In this document: one piece after another, positions 10,795-20,895 of the stretch | Layout: each line of letters opens with the position of its first letter | Numbering within the stretch: the first letter of the stretch is position 1 | NCBI RefSeq assembly: GCF_008629685.1 | Contig: NZ_VWSF01000029.1 | Coordinates: 26,687-58,686 of the forward strand | Origin: Adhaeribacter rhizoryzae | Lineage (GTDB): Bacteria > Bacteroidota > Bacteroidia > Cytophagales > Hymenobacteraceae | Reading direction: 5' to 3' | Length of the DNA stretch: 32,000 nt | Position numbers and translations under genes: made by a program | The notes under the pieces: generated by a model | The model's database searches: none | Seen by the model: only the letters and a program-made list of their open reading frames with translations | What the model was told of the DNA's origin: nothing

Positions 10795-13131
10795 TTAGCT
10801 GTTTACTTCTTCTGTTATTTCTCTGGAAGTAGGAACAGGTTCGCCAACAGGTTCAATAGTTGGGTAATCATCCGGCGAAATATCGGTGTGGGGTTGTAAT
10901 GACCAACCGGTCTTCAAGCCAATTACAAACCAGGCCAGGGCTACCACTCCTAAGGCAAAAATGGTATCTCCTATTACCCGCAGCCAGCGCAAAATTTCCA
11001 TGGTATCGGTTTGCATAAATTCCATGGAGCGGGCATACCATAAACCATGTTCTACACTGGCCCAGGTTTGCAGCAAACCCACTGGTAACACACTTATTAG
11101 TACCATCAGGCCCAGCCCAATATTTATACTCCAGAAAGCAAAACTAATAACACTGTCTTTCCAAACGTTGCGGGCAGCCATACCTTTGAGCGCGAACAGC
11201 ATTAAACCAATTCCCAAAACTCCGTATACCCCGAATAAAGCGGTGTGACCGTGTACCGGCGTGGTATTTAAGCCTTGCATATAGTAGAGTGCAATAGGCG
11301 GATTGATAACGAAACCAAAAATACCAGCTCCTACCAAATTCCAGAAAGCCACCGCAATAAAGCAGTAAATAGGCCACTTGTAAGCTTTAATCCAGGTGGT
11401 AGAGCGGCTTAGTTCCAGGTTATGGTAAGCTTCAAAACCGATTAATACCAGAGGCACTACTTCTAGAGCGCTAAAAGTGGCGCCCAAAGCCAGCACCGAA
11501 GTAGGCGTACCACTGAAATACAGGTGGTGAAACGTGCCAATAATACCGCCAAACAAGAAAATAATGGTGGAAAATAATACTGTTGGCGTGGCAATTTTGG
11601 TACGCAGTAAACCCATCCGCACGAACAAAAAGGCAATTACCACAGTAGCAAAAACTTCAAAGAAACCTTCTACCCACAGGTGCACCACCCACCAGCGCCA
11701 GTACTCGGCAATGGCCAGGTTAGTTTGGCGGCCCCACATCAGGCCAGCGCCGTAGAATACCGCAATGGCTACCGATGAAATCAGGAACATACCCAACAAA
11801 TGGCGGCCTTCAGCATCTTTTTTAAATGCTGGCCAGATGGCGCGGGTCATTAAAAACAACCACAAAAACAAACCTACCAGCAGGAATATTTGCCAGAAAC
11901 GGCCTAAATCTACGTATTCATACCCTTGGTGCCCAAACCAGAAATTTTCTACCAGACCTAGTTTCTGCATTACACCAAACCACTGCCCGGCCAAAGAACC
12001 TACTACTATGATTAGTAAGGCAATAAAAAGCAAGTTTACGCCGGCCCGCTGGAATTTAGGTTCGTGGCCTGATACCGCCGGGGCAATAAATAAGCCGGTC
12101 GCCAACCAGGAAGTCGCAATCCAGAAAATAGCCAGTTGCACGTGCCAGGTGCGGGAGATAGAGTAAGGTAAAATATCGGCCAGTGGCAAACCGTAGAGTG
12201 CCTGCCCTTCTACGCCGTAGTGCGCCGTAACCACACCCATAATTACTTGTACCAATATTAAGGACGTTACAGTCCAGAAATATTTAAGCGTAGCACGCAT
12301 AGAGGGCGTTGGCTCCAAGCCCAGCAGCGGGTCTTTCTGTGGCAGTTTGCTTACATCTAGCTCTTCTTCTTTATTTGAAGCATAATAATAGGCTAATAAC
12401 CCAATGCCCGCAATCAGTACAATTACGCTAAAGCCTGTCCAGATAATCAGGTCGCTGCTGGGTTTATTGCCGACTAACTTTTCGTGGGGCCAGTTATTGG
12501 TGTAAGATATATTTTGGCCAGGGCGTTCGGTCACGCAGGCCCAGGAAGCCCAGAAGAAAAAGGCATTCATCTGGCGCATCCGTTCCGGGTCTTTAATGCT
12601 GTTATCCGGAATGGCGTAAGCTTCGCGGTATTTGGCCATGTCGGCATCATTCATAAATAAACCGGTATAGTAGCGGCTTACATCGGCAATGGCGGCGGCC
12701 CGCACATCCAAAATAGTTATGGTGTTGGCCTGATTATTATAAGTATTTTGCCGGATTTGTGTTTGCAACCGAGCTTCTAAACCGGCCTTGCTTTCGTTAT
12801 CTAAATCAGAAAACTTTTCACCTTTCTCCGCGGTGGCCCAAATATCCAGCATATACATGGCTTCTTTGTGCAGCCACTCAGCCGTCCAGTCGGGTGCCTG
12901 GTAAGCGCCATGGCCCCAGATGGAACCTACTTCCTGCCCGCCCATCGATTGCCAAACATTTTGTCCGTTTTTAATGTCCTGGGCTGTAAATAAAACCTGG
13001 CCTGAAGCCGAAACTACTTTATCCGGAATGGGGGGTGCTTGCCGGTAAATCTCCGAACCATAATACCCTAAAACGGCAAAAGACCCGACTATTACGGCTA
13101 TAAATCCGAGCCATAATTTGGTGTATTTCAT
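10795..13131 (-). CDS. norB: Quinol-dependent nitric oxide reductase (qNOR, single-subunit NorB/NorZ type)
   Basis: 778 aa. An N-terminal TM helix and a ~200-aa periplasmic extension (GQNVWQSMGGQEVGSIWGHGAY) precede a heme-copper core carrying WWVVHLWVEGFFEVF, FHHLYFSG and VHGHTALFGVYG. Confidence 0.95.
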   Translation of the reverse strand: MKYTKLWLGFIAVIVGSFAVLGYYGSEIYRQAPPIPDKVVSASGQVLFTAQDIKNGQNVWQSMGGQEVGSIWGHGAYQAPDWTAEWLHKEAMYMLDIWATAEKGEKFSDLDNESKAGLEARLQTQIRQNTYNNQANTITILDVRAAAIADVSRYYTGLFMNDADMAKYREAYAIPDNSIKDPERMRQMNAFFFWASWACVTERPGQNISYTNNWPHEKLVGNKPSSDLIIWTGFSVIVLIAGIGLLAYYYASNKEEELDVSKLPQKDPLLGLEPTPSMRATLKYFWTVTSLILVQVIMGVVTAHYGVEGQALYGLPLADILPYSISRTWHVQLAIFWIATSWLATGLFIAPAVSGHEPKFQRAGVNLLFIALLIIVVGSLAGQWFGVMQKLGLVENFWFGHQGYEYVDLGRFWQIFLLVGLFLWLFLMTRAIWPAFKKDAEGRHLLGMFLISSVAIAVFYGAGLMWGRQTNLAIAEYWRWWVVHLWVEGFFEVFATVVIAFLFVRMGLLRTKIATPTVLFSTIIFLFGGIIGTFHHLYFSGTPTSVLALGATFSALEVVPLVLIGFEAYHNLELSRSTTWIKAYKWPIYCFIAVAFWNLVGAGIFGFVINPPIALYYMQGLNTTPVHGHTALFGVYGVLGIGLMLFALKGMAARNVWKDSVISFAFWSINIGLGLMVLISVLPVGLLQTWASVEHGLWYARSMEFMQTDTMEILRWLRVIGDTIFALGVVALAWFVIGLKTGWSLQPHTDISPDDYPTIEPVGEPVPTSREITEEVNS

Positions 13132-14516: not shown

Positions 14517-16016
14517 ATGCCCGATGAAAGTCTTGTAAGTTTTACGTCGCATAAAATATTATTTCTGAATACCCTGGCTTTTACGGTTTGTTTTGCCGCC
14601 TGGATGCTGAACGGGGTATTGGTAACATACTTAACGGATAACGGGATTTTTGAATGGAGCATGGTACAAATTGGCTGGCTCCTGGGTGTACCAGTCCTAA
14701 CTGGGTCTTTATTCAGGTTGCCCATTGGGATTTTAACCGACCGGATAGGCGGTAAATGGGTTTTTGGTATTTTGCTATTGTTTTGTTCCGTTCCCATGTT
14801 CCTGCTTTCCCAGGCCAATAGCTATTCTACCTTTTTACTTTTGAGCTTTTTGTTTGGCATGGCCGGTACCAGTTTTGCGGTTGGGGTGGGCTATACATCC
14901 GTTTGGTATCCCAAAAGCTGGCAAGGACGAGCTATTGGTATATTTGGTATGGGTAGCGCCGGTGCTTCGCTTACCACTTTAATCGGACCTTCCTTATTAA
15001 ATAACCTAACGGCTGGTGGTGCCAATCCGGAAGGTTGGCGACAATTACCGGTTATTTATGCGGGGGCCTTGCTGGCAATGGCTATCTTGTTTTTGATTTT
15101 TGCCCAAAATAAAAAACCTGTTGCGGCCGGTAAGTCTCTGCAGGCTATTGTTATGCCCCTAACACAAATTAGGGTGTGGCGTTTTGGCTTGTATTATTTT
15201 CTGCTCTTCGGCTGTTTTGTAACTTTCTCGCAGTGGCTGGTTCCATATTTTGTGAATGTTTATCAGACAGACCTTATTCTGGCGGGTTTACTTGCCTCCA
15301 CTTTTAGTTTGCCCGCCGGATTGTTCCGGGCGGTAGGCGGCTTTCTTTCGGATAAATACGGTGCCCGAAAAGTAATGTATGGGGTCTTGGGCTGTTCAGT
15401 AATACTCAGTTTCTTTTTAATTATTCCCCGCATGGAAATTTCTTCACCCGGCTCGGGGGTAATGGCTACCAGCGCTGGTACTGTAACATCGGTATCAGAC
15501 ACAGCTATTACGGTAAATAATAAAACATATCCGGTTACGGCCAAAAGTAATATGTTTGAACATGTTAACAGAAAGGCATTGGTTTTTCCGGCTAAAGAAA
15601 GCTGGCACGAGGTTTTGGTAAAGCCCGGCGATAAAGTAACTAAAAAACAATTACTGGCACAGGGCACTACCCGTATTTACTTCAAGGCCAATATGTGGGT
15701 ATTTATTGGATTGGTGATGTTTATTGGCATGGCGTGGGGCATTGGTACAGCTGCGGTGTTTAAACATATTCCGGAATATTTTCCTACTCAAATTGGCTTG
15801 GTTGGCGGTATGGTAGGCTTAATTGGTGGGCTTGGCGGCTTTGTCGGGCCAATTTTGTTTGGCTATTTACTTAGTACTACTGGCCTCTGGACCAGTTCCT
15901 GGATGTTTGTCCTGCTACTTTCCATTATTTGCCTCGTTTGGATGCACCTGATTATTACCCGGATGATGAACCGGAGTGCTCCCGATTTGGCTGATAAATT
16001 TGAACATCCGCACTAA
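14517..16016 (+). CDS. narK: MFS nitrate/nitrite transporter (NarK/NasA family) with an inserted ~88-aa loop domain
   Basis: A 12-TM MFS layout. Nitrate/nitrite-porter-like Gly-rich motifs are present (FGMAGTSFAVGVGYTS, GGLGGFVGPILFG), as are conserved Arg-containing helices (SLFRLPIGILTDRIGGK, GLFRAVGGFLSDKYG). An extra soluble segment covers aa 305-392. Confidence 0.85.
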   Translation: MPDESLVSFTSHKILFLNTLAFTVCFAAWMLNGVLVTYLTDNGIFEWSMVQIGWLLGVPVLTGSLFRLPIGILTDRIGGKWVFGILLLFCSVPMFLLSQANSYSTFLLLSFLFGMAGTSFAVGVGYTSVWYPKSWQGRAIGIFGMGSAGASLTTLIGPSLLNNLTAGGANPEGWRQLPVIYAGALLAMAILFLIFAQNKKPVAAGKSLQAIVMPLTQIRVWRFGLYYFLLFGCFVTFSQWLVPYFVNVYQTDLILAGLLASTFSLPAGLFRAVGGFLSDKYGARKVMYGVLGCSVILSFFLIIPRMEISSPGSGVMATSAGTVTSVSDTAITVNNKTYPVTAKSNMFEHVNRKALVFPAKESWHEVLVKPGDKVTKKQLLAQGTTRIYFKANMWVFIGLVMFIGMAWGIGTAAVFKHIPEYFPTQIGLVGGMVGLIGGLGGFVGPILFGYLLSTTGLWTSSWMFVLLLSIICLVWMHLIITRMMNRSAPDLADKFEHPH

Positions 16017-16198: not shown

Positions 16199-16456
16199 CT
16201 AAAAGTTGATATTTTTTCTTCTTACCTGGTTGGGCAAGAAATAAAGCCAGCCGGCGCCAATTAAAAACAAGACAAATGAGGCAATAAAGGCTGGAAATGC
16301 AATATCAGTATTTTCGGCCAGTGCATTGTTCAATGCTGTATATAGCAGCCAAATCTGGAGGCTTACATTCATTATCAGAATAACAATTAAAGCCAGCATC
16401 AGGGTGCTGGTTTTGTTCGGGTGTGCCTGGTTCTGGGCTTCGCGGAAGTTACTCAT
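16199..16456 (-). CDS. Small 2-TM membrane protein, last gene of the molybdoenzyme operon
   Basis: 85 aa with two hydrophobic helices (LMLALIVILIMNVSLQIWLLY, AFIASFVLFLIGAGWLYF). It starts 13 nt after the Rieske gene stop, on the same strand. Confidence 0.6.
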   Translation of the reverse strand: MSNFREAQNQAHPNKTSTLMLALIVILIMNVSLQIWLLYTALNNALAENTDIAFPAFIASFVLFLIGAGWLYFLPNQVRRKNINF

Positions 16457-16469
16457 ACCTGATATTCAA

Positions 16470-17000
16470 TTAAGTGCTACTGGTGTTAAACGGGTTGGCG
16501 GCGTTGGTTTCAAATTCTTTCACGTAAATATCTTCCCCTTTTATTACCACCTCTAACCGGGGTAAGGGCCGGGGCGGTGGTCCTGCCAAAACTTCGCCGG
16601 TTAAGGCATCAAACCAGCCATCGTGACAGGGGCATTCTATTTTGCCGCTTTTCGGCATATAAAATACGGCACACGATAAATGCGTACACTTTTGCTCATA
16701 AGCACGGAATTCGTCGGTTTCGAGGCGGATAAGAATATAGGGTATGGTGCTGCCGGTAATAACAAACGAGCGTGTGCCGCCTTTAGGCAGTTCGCTTTTT
16801 TTACAAACCAAGTGCTCCCCCTGCACTTTTTCGGGTGGAAAAAAATTTGCTTTAACCGCGACGTAACCGCTACCGGTAGCCAACCCACCCGAAACCAGGC
16901 AAAGAAATTTAGCAAAATCGCGGCGGGTAACCTGGGTTGCTTCCAGTTGCTCTATCGGGAAATCTTCTTTCCAGTGATTATCTTTTTCGTCGGTTGCCAT
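16470..17000 (-). CDS. Rieske [2Fe-2S] protein, bc-type, with a twin-arginine / TM-anchor N-terminus
   Basis: QVTRRDFAKFLCLVSGGLATGSG is a Tat-like RR motif followed by a hydrophobic helix. The cluster boxes CTHLSC and CPCHDG include the two extra Cys typical of disulfide-stabilised, high-potential Rieske proteins. Confidence 0.85.
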   Translation of the reverse strand: MATDEKDNHWKEDFPIEQLEATQVTRRDFAKFLCLVSGGLATGSGYVAVKANFFPPEKVQGEHLVCKKSELPKGGTRSFVITGSTIPYILIRLETDEFRAYEQKCTHLSCAVFYMPKSGKIECPCHDGWFDALTGEVLAGPPPRPLPRLEVVIKGEDIYVKEFETNAANPFNTSST

Positions 17001-17004
17001 AATG

Positions 17005-17574
17005 CTAGTCTACAATTAATTGGGTACTCCCCTTCGGCATCATAATATTTACTTTAGTGCTTACCTTTTCATTACCGAAAAGGAAATTATTGACCGGTGT
17101 ACTGTTGGGCCGCATCCGGGCCATTTCTTCGCGGGTGCCGTAATAAAGAGCCTGGGTGGGGCAAACCGTAGCGCACATGGGCTTTTTGCCAGCGCTGGTC
17201 CGGTCGTAGCACATGTTACACTTCATCATTAAATCGTAAGCCTCATTCTTTTTGGGTACCCCAAACGGACAAGCCATTACACAATTAGAGCAGCCAATGC
17301 AACGAGCCGTGTTAGCTGTATGCACCACTCCAAACTCATCTTTCGAGATGGCATCGGCCGGGCAAACGTTAGCGCAAACCGGGTCGTCGCAGTGCATACA
17401 CACCTGCACGGTGGTCTGAATGGTAACCGCCCGGTCTACGTAATTGACGTGTATCATCGATTCGTGGCCGTTGGTTTCGCATTCGGCACAAGCCATTTCG
17501 CAGGCTCTGCATCCGATACACCGCTGCATATCCACAAAAAATTCTTGCTGGGTTTGATAATTGGTTTGGGGCAT
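17005..17574 (-). CDS. Four-cluster [4Fe-4S] ferredoxin subunit (DmsB/NrfC/HybA-like)
   Basis: Four Cys groups: CIGCRACEMAC, CMHCDDPVCANVCP, CIGCSNCVMACP, CNMCYDR...CATVCP. 189 aa with no signal peptide. Confidence 0.85.
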   Translation of the reverse strand: MPQTNYQTQQEFFVDMQRCIGCRACEMACAECETNGHESMIHVNYVDRAVTIQTTVQVCMHCDDPVCANVCPADAISKDEFGVVHTANTARCIGCSNCVMACPFGVPKKNEAYDLMMKCNMCYDRTSAGKKPMCATVCPTQALYYGTREEMARMRPNSTPVNNFLFGNEKVSTKVNIMMPKGSTQLIVD

Positions 17575-17600
17575 ACTGTTATGTTTTAGCTTACAAAATA

Positions 17601-19850
17601 TTATGCACTGGCAAAAGCATTAGACTCCTGCGAAGGCGGCGCTTTAATTCCTAATGGCTCTAACTTACAAGCACATACCTTAAACTCCGGAATTTTGGAT
17701 ATCGGGTCCAGCGTACCAGGGGTAAACTGGTTAGCTGATTTTTTCCCGGGCCAGTGATACGGCAGAAAGACCGTATCGCGCCGGATAGTTTCTACAATAT
17801 TCGCCGGGAATTCATCCGTTCCGCGCCGGGTAGAAACCCGCACCAGTTCGTCCTGATGGATGTTATATTTTAAGGCCAGTTCCGGATGTATTTCCAGCTT
17901 GGGCTCCGGATAAATATCTACTAATTTGCCAATTCGGCGGGTTTGAGTACCGCTTAAATATTGCGATACTACCCGGCCGGTAGTTAAAACCACGGGGTAC
18001 AAATCATCGGTAACTTCGCCTGGTTCCCGATAAGCAACGGCATTAAAGTGGGCCTTGCCATCGGGAGTAGCAAACTTTTTATCTTCCCATAAACGAGGCG
18101 TACCCGGATGGTCTAACGTGGGACAGGGCCAGAAAACGCCCATTTTTTCTTCAATTTTTTGGTAGGTAATGCCAAAATAATCGGCGGTGCCGCCCTTAGA
18201 AGCTACCCGCAATTCATTAAATATATCTTCGCTGGAGTTGTACCGGAATTTATCGCCTGCTCCTAATCGCTCGGCTAATTCTAATATAATAGCGGTATCG
18301 GTACGCGCCTCACCCGGTGGACTTACCGCCCGCCGAATTCTTACTACTCTGCCTTCGGCAGTAGTAACGGTTCCTTCCTCTTCTTCGTGCAACGAACCAG
18401 GCAAAATTATATCGGCGTGGCGGGCTGTTTCGTTCATGAAAAAATCGATGCACATGTAAAACTCCAGTTTCTCCAGAGCCTCGCGTACATAGTTGTTGTT
18501 GGGTAGCGATACCAACGGATTAAAGCAAATGGAAATCAATCCTTTTACTTCGCCCCGGTGAATGGCTTCAATCAGTTCGTAAGCCGTAAGCCCTTTGCCC
18601 GGCATATCTTTTTCGTCTATGCCCCAAACCTGGGAAATATATTTACGATGCTCCGGATTGGTGATGTCGCGGTTGCCGGGCAATTGGTCGCATTTATGGC
18701 CGTGTTCGCGGCCGCCTTGGCCATTACCCTGGCCGGTAATGGTACCGTAACCGCAATAAGGTTTGCCTATCCGGCCGGTAGCCAGTACTAGGTTTATGCA
18801 ACCCAATACATTGTCTACCCCTTTGGAATGATGTTCGATGCCGCGGGCGTGCAATAAAAAACTGGTAGCCGCTTTGCCCCACCACTGCGCCGCCAGTTCA
18901 ATTTTTTCTTTTTCGATGCCGGTAACTTCTTCGGCCCATTCCAGGGTATAATCTTTTACGGTGGCTAAAGCCTGGTCAAAACCGGAAGTATAATTATTTA
19001 TAAAATCATGGTCCAGCATATCATGGTCGGCCAAATACTTCAACATGGCGCCATATAAAGCTGAATCGGTACCGGGCCGAATGGGCAGGTGTAAATCGGC
19101 GGTACGGGCCAGCGGAATTACGCGCGGGTCTACTACAATTAGTTTCGCACCGTAATCGCGGGCCCGCCATATCCAATGCGTCAAAGTCGGGAATGTTTCA
19201 CTTACATTGGCACCGGCCACCAAAATTACTTCAGCCCGCTCTAAGTCCTCAAACGTATTCGAAATCCGGTCGAGGCCAAAAGCTTTCTTGTTGCCGGCAC
19301 CCGCGCTTACCATGCACAAGCGGCCATTATAATCGAGGTTAGCGGTTTTAAGTGCCACCCGGGCAAATTTCCCCACCAGGTAGCTTTTTTCATTAGTTAA
19401 CGAAACGCCCGACAACATGGCAAAAGCATCGTTGCCGTACTGCGCCTTAATGCGTTTAATTTCTGAAACGGTTTTTTCCATGGCGGCATCCCATGGAACC
19501 GGGGTAAACCCTACTCCTTCCTGCCGCTGCAAAGGTTGCAACAGGCGGTCGGGGTGGTTGTTTTGCATGTAGCGCTGCACACCTTTGGGGCATAAGCGGC
19601 CTTCGTTAAACGGGAACTCCATCCACGGGTCGAAACCAACTACTTTATTCTTTTTAACCAACAGCTTAATGCCGCACTGCATACCGCAAAAACAGCAATG
19701 CGTTTTTACCACCGCATCCGGTTCATCGCGGCCTAAGAAACCTTCGTGCGAAGGATAATTTTTGTGGGGTCCAAATTGGGCAATCAGTTTTTCGGGAGAT
19801 ACCGGAAGATACGCCATATTAGTTCTTTTAACCGAATAATTTACCGCCAT
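17601..19850 (-). CDS. Molybdopterin (bis-MGD) oxidoreductase catalytic subunit, Nas/NarB/Nap-like nitrate-reductase type, no signal peptide
   Basis: 749 aa. An N-terminal 4Fe-4S motif [10 protein letters not shown]...RLCPKG is present. The segment [18 protein letters not shown] resembles the Cys-Mo-ligand region of Cys-ligated nitrate reductases. There is no RR motif. An alternative start is M12 at 19817 ([10 protein letters not shown]). Confidence 0.85.
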
Positions 19851-20895
19851 CCTGCTGGCGGGCCTTGAGGTGAGCCATACCCAACCGCGAACGTTTTCCT
19901 TCGGGGCTTAAATCCAGGTGAGAAGTTCCGTCTGCCCGGGTAAAATCAAAACCTAGCTCTTTGGTTACCGTTTTTAAATCGTCTATATGCATCTGGGTCG
20001 CGAATTCTTTACCGGTATGCGGACAAACGGCCATGCCTCTTTTAATACCTTCTCTTTTGTAGATGTGGGCGCCAATTTGGGCCGGCCGCTGAATAATATG
20101 AAAAAACTTACCAAATGGAATCCAAATCAAAAACATGATAACTGTTACAGCGTGGGTTACGGCCATAAAATCATAGGCCATGCCTTTCATAAACTGGTAA
20201 TCGTAGGTTAATCCTAAACCGGTAATAGAAATAGCCAGCAGCAGTATTAAAGGCAGTAAATCGCCATCGAAGGATTGGATAGAAATTAAACCGGCGTGGG
20301 TTAGCCGGCGGCGCATAAAAATCAGCACCCCAATTATTACCAGCCAAGAACACCAGTTAAGGGCATGAAACGTGAAGAAAGCAATAAAAGAACCAAGCGG
20401 AAATTCAAAAACCTTAAATCCAAAAAAATGTGCTTCGTACATGCGAACGCTATCGGGGTTCAGACTGGTTTCGGGATTGAGGGTAAAATGAATCCAGCCA
20501 AAAGTGAGCGGAAAAGTAATGGCAAAGGCCATGGTACAACCTACGGCCATTAAAAAGTGACCAATCCACCGGCTGCGGCCTCTGGGATAAATAAATTTCT
20601 GAAAACCAATATTCTGAATGAATTCTTTTATAAAAAAGTACAAGTGCGCAAACACTTGGCCTTTAAATACAAACTGCCAGGTACGTTTAAAATACATCCA
20701 GGTGGGTGGCCGTTGCAGCCAAACCGAATACCGGTACACAATTCCAAAAAAGGCGAATACCGTTCCGAATAAATAACCAATCAGGGCCGGGTCAAAATTC
20801 TGTAGTTTGCGGGAGCCGTAAAAGACCGTTGCTATCACCAAAACAGAAACCAGCGTTGCTATCAGAATTGCTTTTCGGTTGAGGGTGGTATTCAT
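19828..20895 (-). CDS. Polytopic membrane protein, NarI/HdrE/DsrM-like (putative di-heme cytochrome b) with a ~80-aa cytoplasmic tail
   Basis: 355 aa with about 6 TM helices that carry His residues ([20 protein letters not shown]). The last helix, [15 protein letters not shown], resembles the PF.K..H motif of the NarI-gamma family (from memory, not computed). It overlaps the Mo-subunit ORF by 23 nt. Confidence 0.7.

Follow-up and report, generated by a model that had tools for sequence, protein, structure and literature searches.

The stretch analysed here, called the window in the following, comprises 32,000 nucleotides of Adhaeribacter rhizoryzae (NCBI RefSeq assembly GCF_008629685.1, contig NZ_VWSF01000029.1, positions 26,687 to 58,686 of the forward strand). 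Five tightly packed genes on the minus strand of the window encode a membrane subunit, a molybdenum (Mo) subunit, an iron-sulfur (FeS) subunit, a Rieske protein and a DUF6755 protein. This operon was analysed for its probable function as a membrane-spanning nitrate reductase and for the predicted placement of its products on the two sides of the membrane. The initial annotation had offered two arrangements without choosing between them, namely export of the Mo and FeS subunits on the twin-arginine translocation (Tat) signal of the Rieske protein, or a complex that spans the membrane. The five genes, with the predicted properties of their products, are as follows.

20895..19828, minus strand: membrane (haem) subunit, 355 amino acids (aa); NarI/EtfD-like, six-helix, two-haem cytochrome b with a cytoplasmic C-terminal domain
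19850..17601, minus strand: Mo-bis(pyranopterin guanine dinucleotide) (Mo-bisPGD) catalytic subunit, 749 aa as called; Nas/NarB-like, without signal peptide
17574..17005, minus strand: four-cluster [4Fe-4S] electron-transfer subunit, 189 aa; without signal peptide and without membrane helix
17000..16470, minus strand: bc/b6f-type Rieske protein, 176 aa; uncleaved Tat signal-anchor, with the head predicted to face outward
16456..16199, minus strand: small two-helix membrane protein DUF6755, 85 aa, fifth subunit (Pfam DUF6755, 39 bits; hydropathy)

For comparison, 57 related loci were used, with about 50 orthologous operons. The gene order haem subunit, Mo subunit, FeS subunit, Rieske protein was strictly kept in Sphingobacteriia, Chitinophagia, one Prolixibacteraceae genome, Obscuribacterales and several classes of Acidobacteriota; a fragment from Gemmatimonadales holds the haem-subunit gene only. 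In Obscuribacterales and Acidobacteriota, too, a recognisable counterpart of the DUF6755 gene comes after that of the Rieske protein. The reading as a soluble cytoplasmic Nas enzyme lying merely beside unrelated membrane genes was rejected, since loci of different phyla share the arrangement of all five genes, which overlap or almost touch. The DUF6755 protein is probably not redox-active, since it has no conserved Cys or His. A narJ gene is absent from the operon, and matches to an FNR-type box upstream of it were no commoner than expected by chance. The haem subunit was detected in five of 300 other genomes sampled from the phylum, four of them belonging to one genus, so that its distribution within the Bacteroidota is patchy; protein searches overall returned thousands of clusters.

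The Mo subunit matched the Pfam families Molybdop_Fe4S4, Molybdopterin and Molydop_binding. The closest NCBIfam model was that of the cytoplasmic NasC (827.5 bits, cut-off 1100). Scores on the NapA models were 264-273 bits (cut-offs 904-930) and on the AioA model 149 bits (cut-off 359), and no NarG model occurred among the 25 listed of 27 NCBIfam matches. Among solved structures, the protein was closest to cytoplasmic formate dehydrogenases. A four-Cys FS0 motif is located at residues 52-87. The Mo-ligand motif RLCM (residues 177-180) aligns with the Sec-His position of formate dehydrogenase and was for this reason equated with the Cys-Met of Nap/Nas enzymes. The probable true start of the protein is Met12 (19817, MAYLPVS), because ortholog conservation begins there, at MA(x)LP, and the 11 codons upstream overlap the preceding gene.

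The FeS subunit matched Pfam Fer4_11 and, among NCBIfam models, DmsB (107 bits) and FdnH (106 bits); on the narH model TIGR01660 it scored 42 bits (cut-off 524). It contains four groups of four Cys, and its closest solved relative was FdnH (1kqf_B). In FdnGHI, NarGHI and PsrABC, the far end of the four-cluster FeS subunit docks onto the membrane subunit. No membrane helix was found in the FeS subunit by hydropathy. Prior to the search for export signals, Mo and FeS orthologs were extended back to the upstream stop codon. Neither a twin-arginine motif nor a hydrophobic N-terminus was detected in the Mo or the FeS subunit, in the window or in about 50 orthologs, in agreement with the initial annotation, which had described both as free of a signal peptide.

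In the Rieske protein, TRRDFAKF (residues 25-32; 16905-16928) is directly followed by a 17-residue hydrophobic stretch (residues 33-49; 16854-16904), which is only moderately hydrophobic by hydropathy; basic residues precede this helix. The cluster boxes CTHLSC (residues 105-110) and CPCH (residues 123-126) include the two extra Cys of bc1/b6f-type Rieske proteins. Such a disulfide-forming pair is a usual feature of bc-type Rieske proteins that are exported; Rieske ferredoxins of the cytoplasm lack it. Tat signals were scanned for as the pattern [STN]RRx[FL]x[KR] ahead of a hydrophobic stretch, the pattern having to lie within residues 1-70. The Rieske protein was the sole one of the window's 46 open reading frames (ORFs) to pass. 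Genome-wide, 29 of 6706 ORFs were positive, all on one common consensus, which the Rieske motif fits; TatC is encoded in the genome. Every Rieske ortholog examined, from Bacteroidota, Obscuribacterales and Acidobacteriota, keeps (S/T/N)RRxFx(K/R)F, the hydrophobic stretch and both extra Cys. Judged by motif and hydropathy, the protein has the twin-Arg motif, the hydrophobic stretch, the boxes and the Cys pair of a Tat signal-anchored bc-type Rieske protein. The twin-arginine segment, helix and disulfide cysteines named in the initial annotation were confirmed in this way, and the segment was recognisable as a Tat and membrane signal in the scan.

The assignment to the bc/b6f type was supported by database comparison. 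The protein scored 48 bits on Pfam Rieske and 49 bits on the NCBIfam model of the b6f protein PetC over residues 19-163; the AioB model gave 22.9 bits (cut-off 95.65). The top matches in the PDB were bc/b6f-type Rieske proteins (46-39 bits), and AioB followed with 30 bits. The hinge is short, as in the bc/b6f type. The context of box II is CPCHDGWF, without the Ser and Tyr that raise the cluster potential of bc1 Rieske proteins at this position. Their absence makes a menaquinol-type cluster of lower potential more likely, and the designation of the protein as a high-potential Rieske protein was not borne out.

An additional motif, W(K/R)xDF(P/S)I (residues 9-16; 16953-16976), is located about 14 residues upstream of the twin-arginine motif in all orthologs. 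Although the n-region of a Tat signal, where it is located, is supposed to vary, the motif is kept down to about 40% identity, which suggests a binding role in the cytoplasm; the W(K/R)xDFPI peptide, remaining cytoplasmic ahead of the twin Arg, may clamp the inner module. A natural fusion of the Rieske protein with another subunit was not found among the best 150 of 6524 representatives. A candidate Rieske-DUF6755 fusion (P0277) was rejected, the sequence being frameshifted. Distant Rieske relatives included proteins with two or three tandem Rieske-like domains (P0267, P0282, P0318), and some of this group have a lipoprotein-like N-terminus.

The haem subunit had no match in Pfam and thus matched neither NarI nor cytochrome b there. 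Weak NCBIfam matches to TmcC, QmoC and TcuB were taken as pointing to the NarI/HdrE-like group of haem-b membrane anchors. An AlphaFold2 model (mean predicted local distance difference test score (pLDDT) 84, predicted template modelling score (pTM) 0.75) and hydropathy gave six membrane helices. In a Foldseek search of this model against the PDB, high probabilities were obtained only for EtfD of M. smegmatis (9ojn, 0.99) and NarI of E. coli (1siw_C, 0.92); most of the matches were to G-protein-coupled receptors and were regarded as noise. Solved members of the NarI/EtfD/HdrE group, such as EtfD and NarI, work with cytoplasmic FeS partners. His113, His248 and His266 are invariant, and His177 is present in at least 90% of the sequences. 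A PFGKFFH motif and a 12-residue loop on the outer (P) side are invariant across phyla, and this outer loop is the most conserved stretch of the protein.

Basic residues of the haem subunit are concentrated in segments 61-109 and 196-211 and in the C-terminal domain, and loops 27-38 and 132-169 are neutral to acidic; on this distribution both termini were placed inside. On the predicted topology, an inner-face haem would be held by His113 and His266 and an outer-face haem by His177 and His248, the two together forming a transmembrane wire. The C-terminal domain (residues 270-348; 19828-20085) is conserved across phyla. It carries an intact CxxC...CPxC in Obscuribacterales and Acidobacteriota, a zinc-ribbon-like pattern that suits the cytoplasm; Bacteroidota retain a single Cys (C291) in a domain that is still conserved.

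The strongest indication of the side of nitrate reduction came from transporter genes. In all 18 loci from outside the Bacteroidota for which upstream sequence was available, the haem subunit is the C-terminal half of a single frame of about 740 aa that starts with a NarK-type transporter of the major facilitator superfamily (MFS; Pfam MFS_1, 138-149 bits), some 400 aa in length. A search with the haem part, restricted to long proteins, yielded at least 2644 protein clusters of this long form. Most of the best 120 such clusters are about 744 aa in length with MFS domains and were called as single genes by several pipelines. The fused domain of locus L047 aligns to NarU/NarK with an E-value of about 1e-22, and both substrate Arg and the GxGNxG signature are kept. 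In the fused forms, the NarK C-terminus runs into helix 1 of the haem subunit via an Arg-rich linker. The C-terminus of NarK is cytoplasmic in solved structures, so that the fusion agrees with the topology predicted for the haem subunit.

A separate narK gene adjoins the operon in the window and in six further Bacteroidota loci (L001, L002, L004, L009, L016, L028). In 26 loci, a gene of the SLAC1/TehA family (PF03595, 150-159 bits; for example L011:6900-7961) takes the place of NarK directly upstream of the haem subunit; we know of no bacterial member of this family that carries nitrate or nitrite. Of the 49 loci in which the upstream flank reaches 1.2 kb or more, 48 showed one of the three arrangements (fused NarK, adjacent NarK, SLAC1/TehA). 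Fusion of the transporter to the haem subunit, and the occurrence of another anion transporter in loci that lack it, make it likely that nitrate is reduced inside the cell. On these sequences, a fused transporter would be sensible only with cytoplasmic nitrate reduction; an enzyme in the periplasm would not need it. The suggestion in the initial annotation that a spanning layout would explain the adjacent NarK gene gained support from both the fusion and the linkage. In the window, the transporter gene and a further neighbour lie at these positions.

14517..16016, plus strand: NarK-family nitrate/nitrite transporter (Pfam MFS_1), convergent neighbour, 183 nucleotides from the end of the operon
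13131..10795: quinol NO reductase (qNor)

Fused NarK domains are free of a hydrophilic stretch of about 90 residues that occurs between later helices of the window NarK (about residues 305-394). The window also contains a MoeB-rhodanese gene and a nos cluster, and the operon is placed between the qNor and nos genes.

With a probability of roughly 0.7, the five genes encode one membrane-spanning menaquinol:nitrate oxidoreductase, with the Rieske head outside and the Mo/FeS half inside. From the observed sequence features, conservation, gene order, NarK fusion and transporter linkage we infer on which side the Mo and FeS subunits lie, how they dock, where quinol is oxidised and which way the Rieske electron takes, as follows. 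The haem subunit would have six helices, both termini in the cytoplasm and two b-haems. The Rieske protein would be inserted by Tat as an uncleaved signal-anchor. On the outer face, its [2Fe-2S] head would lie next to the DUF6755 protein and to the loop of the haem subunit that is invariant there, and the three would form the quinol-oxidising site. The FeS and Nas-type Mo subunits would stay in the cytoplasm and dock onto the inner face of the haem subunit, as NarH/NarG do on NarI. Nitrate would enter and nitrite would leave the cell via the NarK transporter. Menaquinol would be oxidised at the outer face, with release of its protons to the outside, and electrons would traverse the two haems to the FeS subunit and Mo, where cytoplasmic protons would be used in nitrate reduction, giving a Nar-like redox loop. 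The Rieske electron would, as our preferred guess, be passed to the outer haem. Of the two arrangements offered initially, the spanning one was thus supported, by the NarK fusion, the linkage in 48 of 49 loci, the haem-subunit topology and the four-cluster type of the FeS subunit; the hitch-hiking one lost its main support, the signal-anchor, for the reason given below. A Rieske protein serving a cytoplasm-facing nitrate reductase has a partial precedent, as Nar1 of Streptomyces coelicolor depends on the Rieske-containing bcc complex (PMC7931247).

Several points weigh against this layout. The evidence on the side of the Mo and FeS subunits is indirect, and in a fold of the natural, in-frame FeS-Rieske read-through of locus L001 (TAA read as Gln) the FeS half reached a pLDDT of 30-40 (pTM 0.41) and was mute on docking. 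The Foldseek matches to NarI/EtfD were weak (E-values 0.1-1; for NarI 1siw_C, E-value 0.67 and TM-score 0.31-0.47), and the window NarK scored 174 bits on NCBIfam TIGR00886 (cut-off 311.7). In principle, NarK might serve for the uptake of nitrite formed outside the cell. A simple Nar-like loop has no necessary role for the Rieske protein, the operon encodes no acceptor for the Rieske electron, and we know of no precedent for a Rieske cluster that passes electrons to a b-haem. If the Mo module were periplasmic and worked in a Q-cycle, each of the redox subunits would have a function, and an external acceptor for the Rieske electron would be unnecessary. For this, the Rieske Tat signal would have to carry the folded Mo-FeS-Rieske module outside, tethered to the outer face. 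Quinol would then be oxidised at a Qo-like site; one electron would pass from Rieske via the FeS subunit to Mo and periplasmic nitrate, and the other would cross the two haems and re-reduce quinone inside in a Q-cycle-like manner, with an energy yield that by count equals that of a Nar-like loop. Such export has a precedent in AioAB, where the Tat signal of the Rieske subunit carries a signal-less Mo subunit, and the twin-arginine signal-anchor in the window is real and conserved. To our knowledge, however, every bc1/b6f-type Rieske protein bears a Tat signal-anchor for its own insertion, and because any such protein needs one for itself, the signal-anchor is uninformative on the export of partners. 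The window Rieske protein is nearer to the b6f/bc types than to AioB, and the Mo subunit with its four-Cys FS0 and interposed four-cluster protein is unlike AioA. An inner quinone-reducing site would be needed, which we know of in no NarI-like family member, and electron flow from Rieske through a [4Fe-4S] chain to Mo would be unprecedented. Export of the module would also not explain why NarK is fused to the haem subunit, why nearly all loci have a linked transporter, why a SLAC1-type gene can replace NarK or why the cytoplasmic domain is conserved. We regard this arrangement as quite unlikely.

The layout proposed here, with Mo and FeS inside and the Rieske head outside, may also be combined with a different fate of the Rieske electron. 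Quinol might be split as in complex III, one electron going to cytoplasmic nitrate and the other via Rieske and a periplasmic cytochrome c to N2O reductase or a terminal oxidase. The bc/b6f type and short hinge of the Rieske protein, as well as the cytochrome c and NosZ genes nearby in the window, speak for such an exit, and Thermus NarCGHI has an extra periplasmic redox subunit, NarC. No c-type cytochrome or other acceptor gene recurred in the flanks of the 40-odd longer loci, though, and nitrate reduction would be made dependent on a second acceptor. Apibacter, moreover, has the cluster without nitrite-handling genes according to the Apibacter preprint, and this exit appears unlikely. In a wider form, an outward Rieske protein and a NarI-like cytochrome b would make up the quinol-splitting site of a hybrid of complex III and nitrate reductase, from which one of the two menaquinol electrons would cross to a low-potential FeS chain and the Nas-type Mo site and the other would reach periplasmic acceptors or the outer haem via Rieske; this hybrid would have no described counterpart and is put forward tentatively, as a possibility with the odds against it. 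Finally, all FeS partners would be on one side, in a simple chain, if the twin-arginine segment were no working export signal and the Rieske head remained in the cytoplasm with Mo and FeS, the whole soluble module sitting on the inner face. The moderate hydrophobicity of the Rieske stretch would be in line with this. The agreement of the motif with the genome's own Tat consensus, the basic residues before the helix and the two disulfide-forming Cys in every ortholog, typical of exported bc-type Rieske proteins, make a cytoplasmic head highly improbable.

Compared with known systems, the predicted complex would work like NarGHI-NarK, yet on its sequences it falls outside the Nar, Nap, Nas, Aio and bc groups. 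With NarGHI and NarK of the E. coli type (PDB 1Q16) it shares the proposed two-haem membrane subunit, the four-cluster FeS subunit, Mo in the cytoplasm, the link to NarK and the yield of a redox loop. It differs in the catalytic subunit, which is of the Nas/NarB type with a Cys ligand and about 740 aa in length (NarG, 1200 aa), and in the FeS subunit of 189 aa (NarH, 512), so that neither is of the NarG or NarH type. Its six-helix membrane subunit differs in His pattern, has a cytoplasmic domain and is without a Pfam NarI match, and the operon adds an exported Rieske protein and a two-helix protein and is without narJ. Unlike NapA, the Mo subunit has no twin-arginine signal of its own, and with its score far below the NapA cut-off it is not a Nap enzyme. 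NasC/NarB is the closest family of the catalytic subunit and shares the Cys-Met Mo-ligand motif; the score is below the cut-off of 1100, however, and the partners are of the membrane respiratory type instead of NAD(P)H or ferredoxin modules, which sets the operon apart from Nas.

AioAB (PDB 1G8K) is similar in that a signal-less Mo-bisPGD subunit is encoded beside a twin-arginine Rieske protein. The 3Fe-4S site of AioA touches the Rieske protein directly, whereas the window protein has four Cys at FS0 and is not of the Aio type. AioAB has no four-cluster subunit, haem b subunit or transporter, whereas loci of the window type always have the four-cluster and haem subunits, and in AioAB electrons run from Mo to Rieske. 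The bc1, b6f and bcc complexes share a Rieske protein with Tat signal-anchor, CTHxxC/CPCH boxes and disulfide pair, placed on the outer face by a two-haem membrane protein. The haem protein of the window is, however, not a bc-type cytochrome b, no c1/f-type cytochrome is encoded in the operon, and the products do not constitute a bc complex; a Mo enzyme, and not a quinone-reducing site, would be the terminus of the low-potential chain. The Nar1/bcc-aa3 system of Streptomyces coelicolor (PMC7931247) and Thermus NarCGHI are alike in that a cytoplasm-facing nitrate reductase depends on or includes a redox partner at the outer face. There, this is a separate complex or a c-type cytochrome acting with a true NarGHI; here, a Rieske protein is encoded inside a Nas-type operon.

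A literature search did not find an enzyme type with this subunit set and layout described, although the genes are widespread. In a preprint on Apibacter, a cluster named NAR is remarked to have a Rieske gene 'in place of narI', without topology analysis. A paper on Caldithrix deals with a different case, a Rieske/cytochrome b pair within a Nap cluster. Unfused orthologs of the haem subunit are often called 'MFS transporter' by NCBI, for example in Flavobacterium johnsoniae, the haem subunit of which is 74% identical to that of the window; the label was probably carried over from the NarK-fused forms. Some orthologs are called 'nitrate reductase gamma subunit' by JGI. Because the catalytic gene scores as nasC-type and the haem subunit is named 'MFS transporter', genome and metagenome surveys probably assign the operon wrongly to nitrate assimilation or overlook it.

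If the enzyme is quinol-linked and energy-conserving, respiratory nitrate reductases would comprise a third type in addition to Nar and Nap. The operon occurs in Bacteroidota of soil and water, in Acidobacteriota, in relatives of cyanobacteria that do not photosynthesise, and in other groups. A nitrate reductase with a Rieske protein is also of interest for the recruitment of Rieske/cytochrome b modules in the evolution of respiration. Flavobacterium johnsoniae is genetically tractable, and the topology would be directly testable there if the operon is complete in this organism.

The genome of A. rhizoryzae was searched for further enzymes of nitrogen metabolism. It encodes three Mo-bisPGD enzymes, namely the operon subunit, an assimilatory NasA and a 912-aa protein that we guess to be ActB-like. 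NarG and NapA were not found in the genome, nor were NirK or a convincing NirS. The operon is the only candidate for dissimilatory nitrate reduction in this genome, and it lies near qNor and NosZ. With qNor, NosZ and a nitrate reductase but no NirK or convincing NirS detected, the organism looks like a truncated denitrifier. A complete assimilatory cluster is located on another contig (C6:54000-75300). It comprises genes for an ABC-type (ATP-binding cassette) transporter, NirB (836 aa), NirD (123 aa), a NarK-like MFS protein (459 aa) and the NasA-type Mo enzyme (1174 aa), together with probable genes for molybdenum cofactor biosynthesis. Since this cluster has its own NarK-like and ABC-type transporter genes, the NarK beside the operon is not needed for assimilation.

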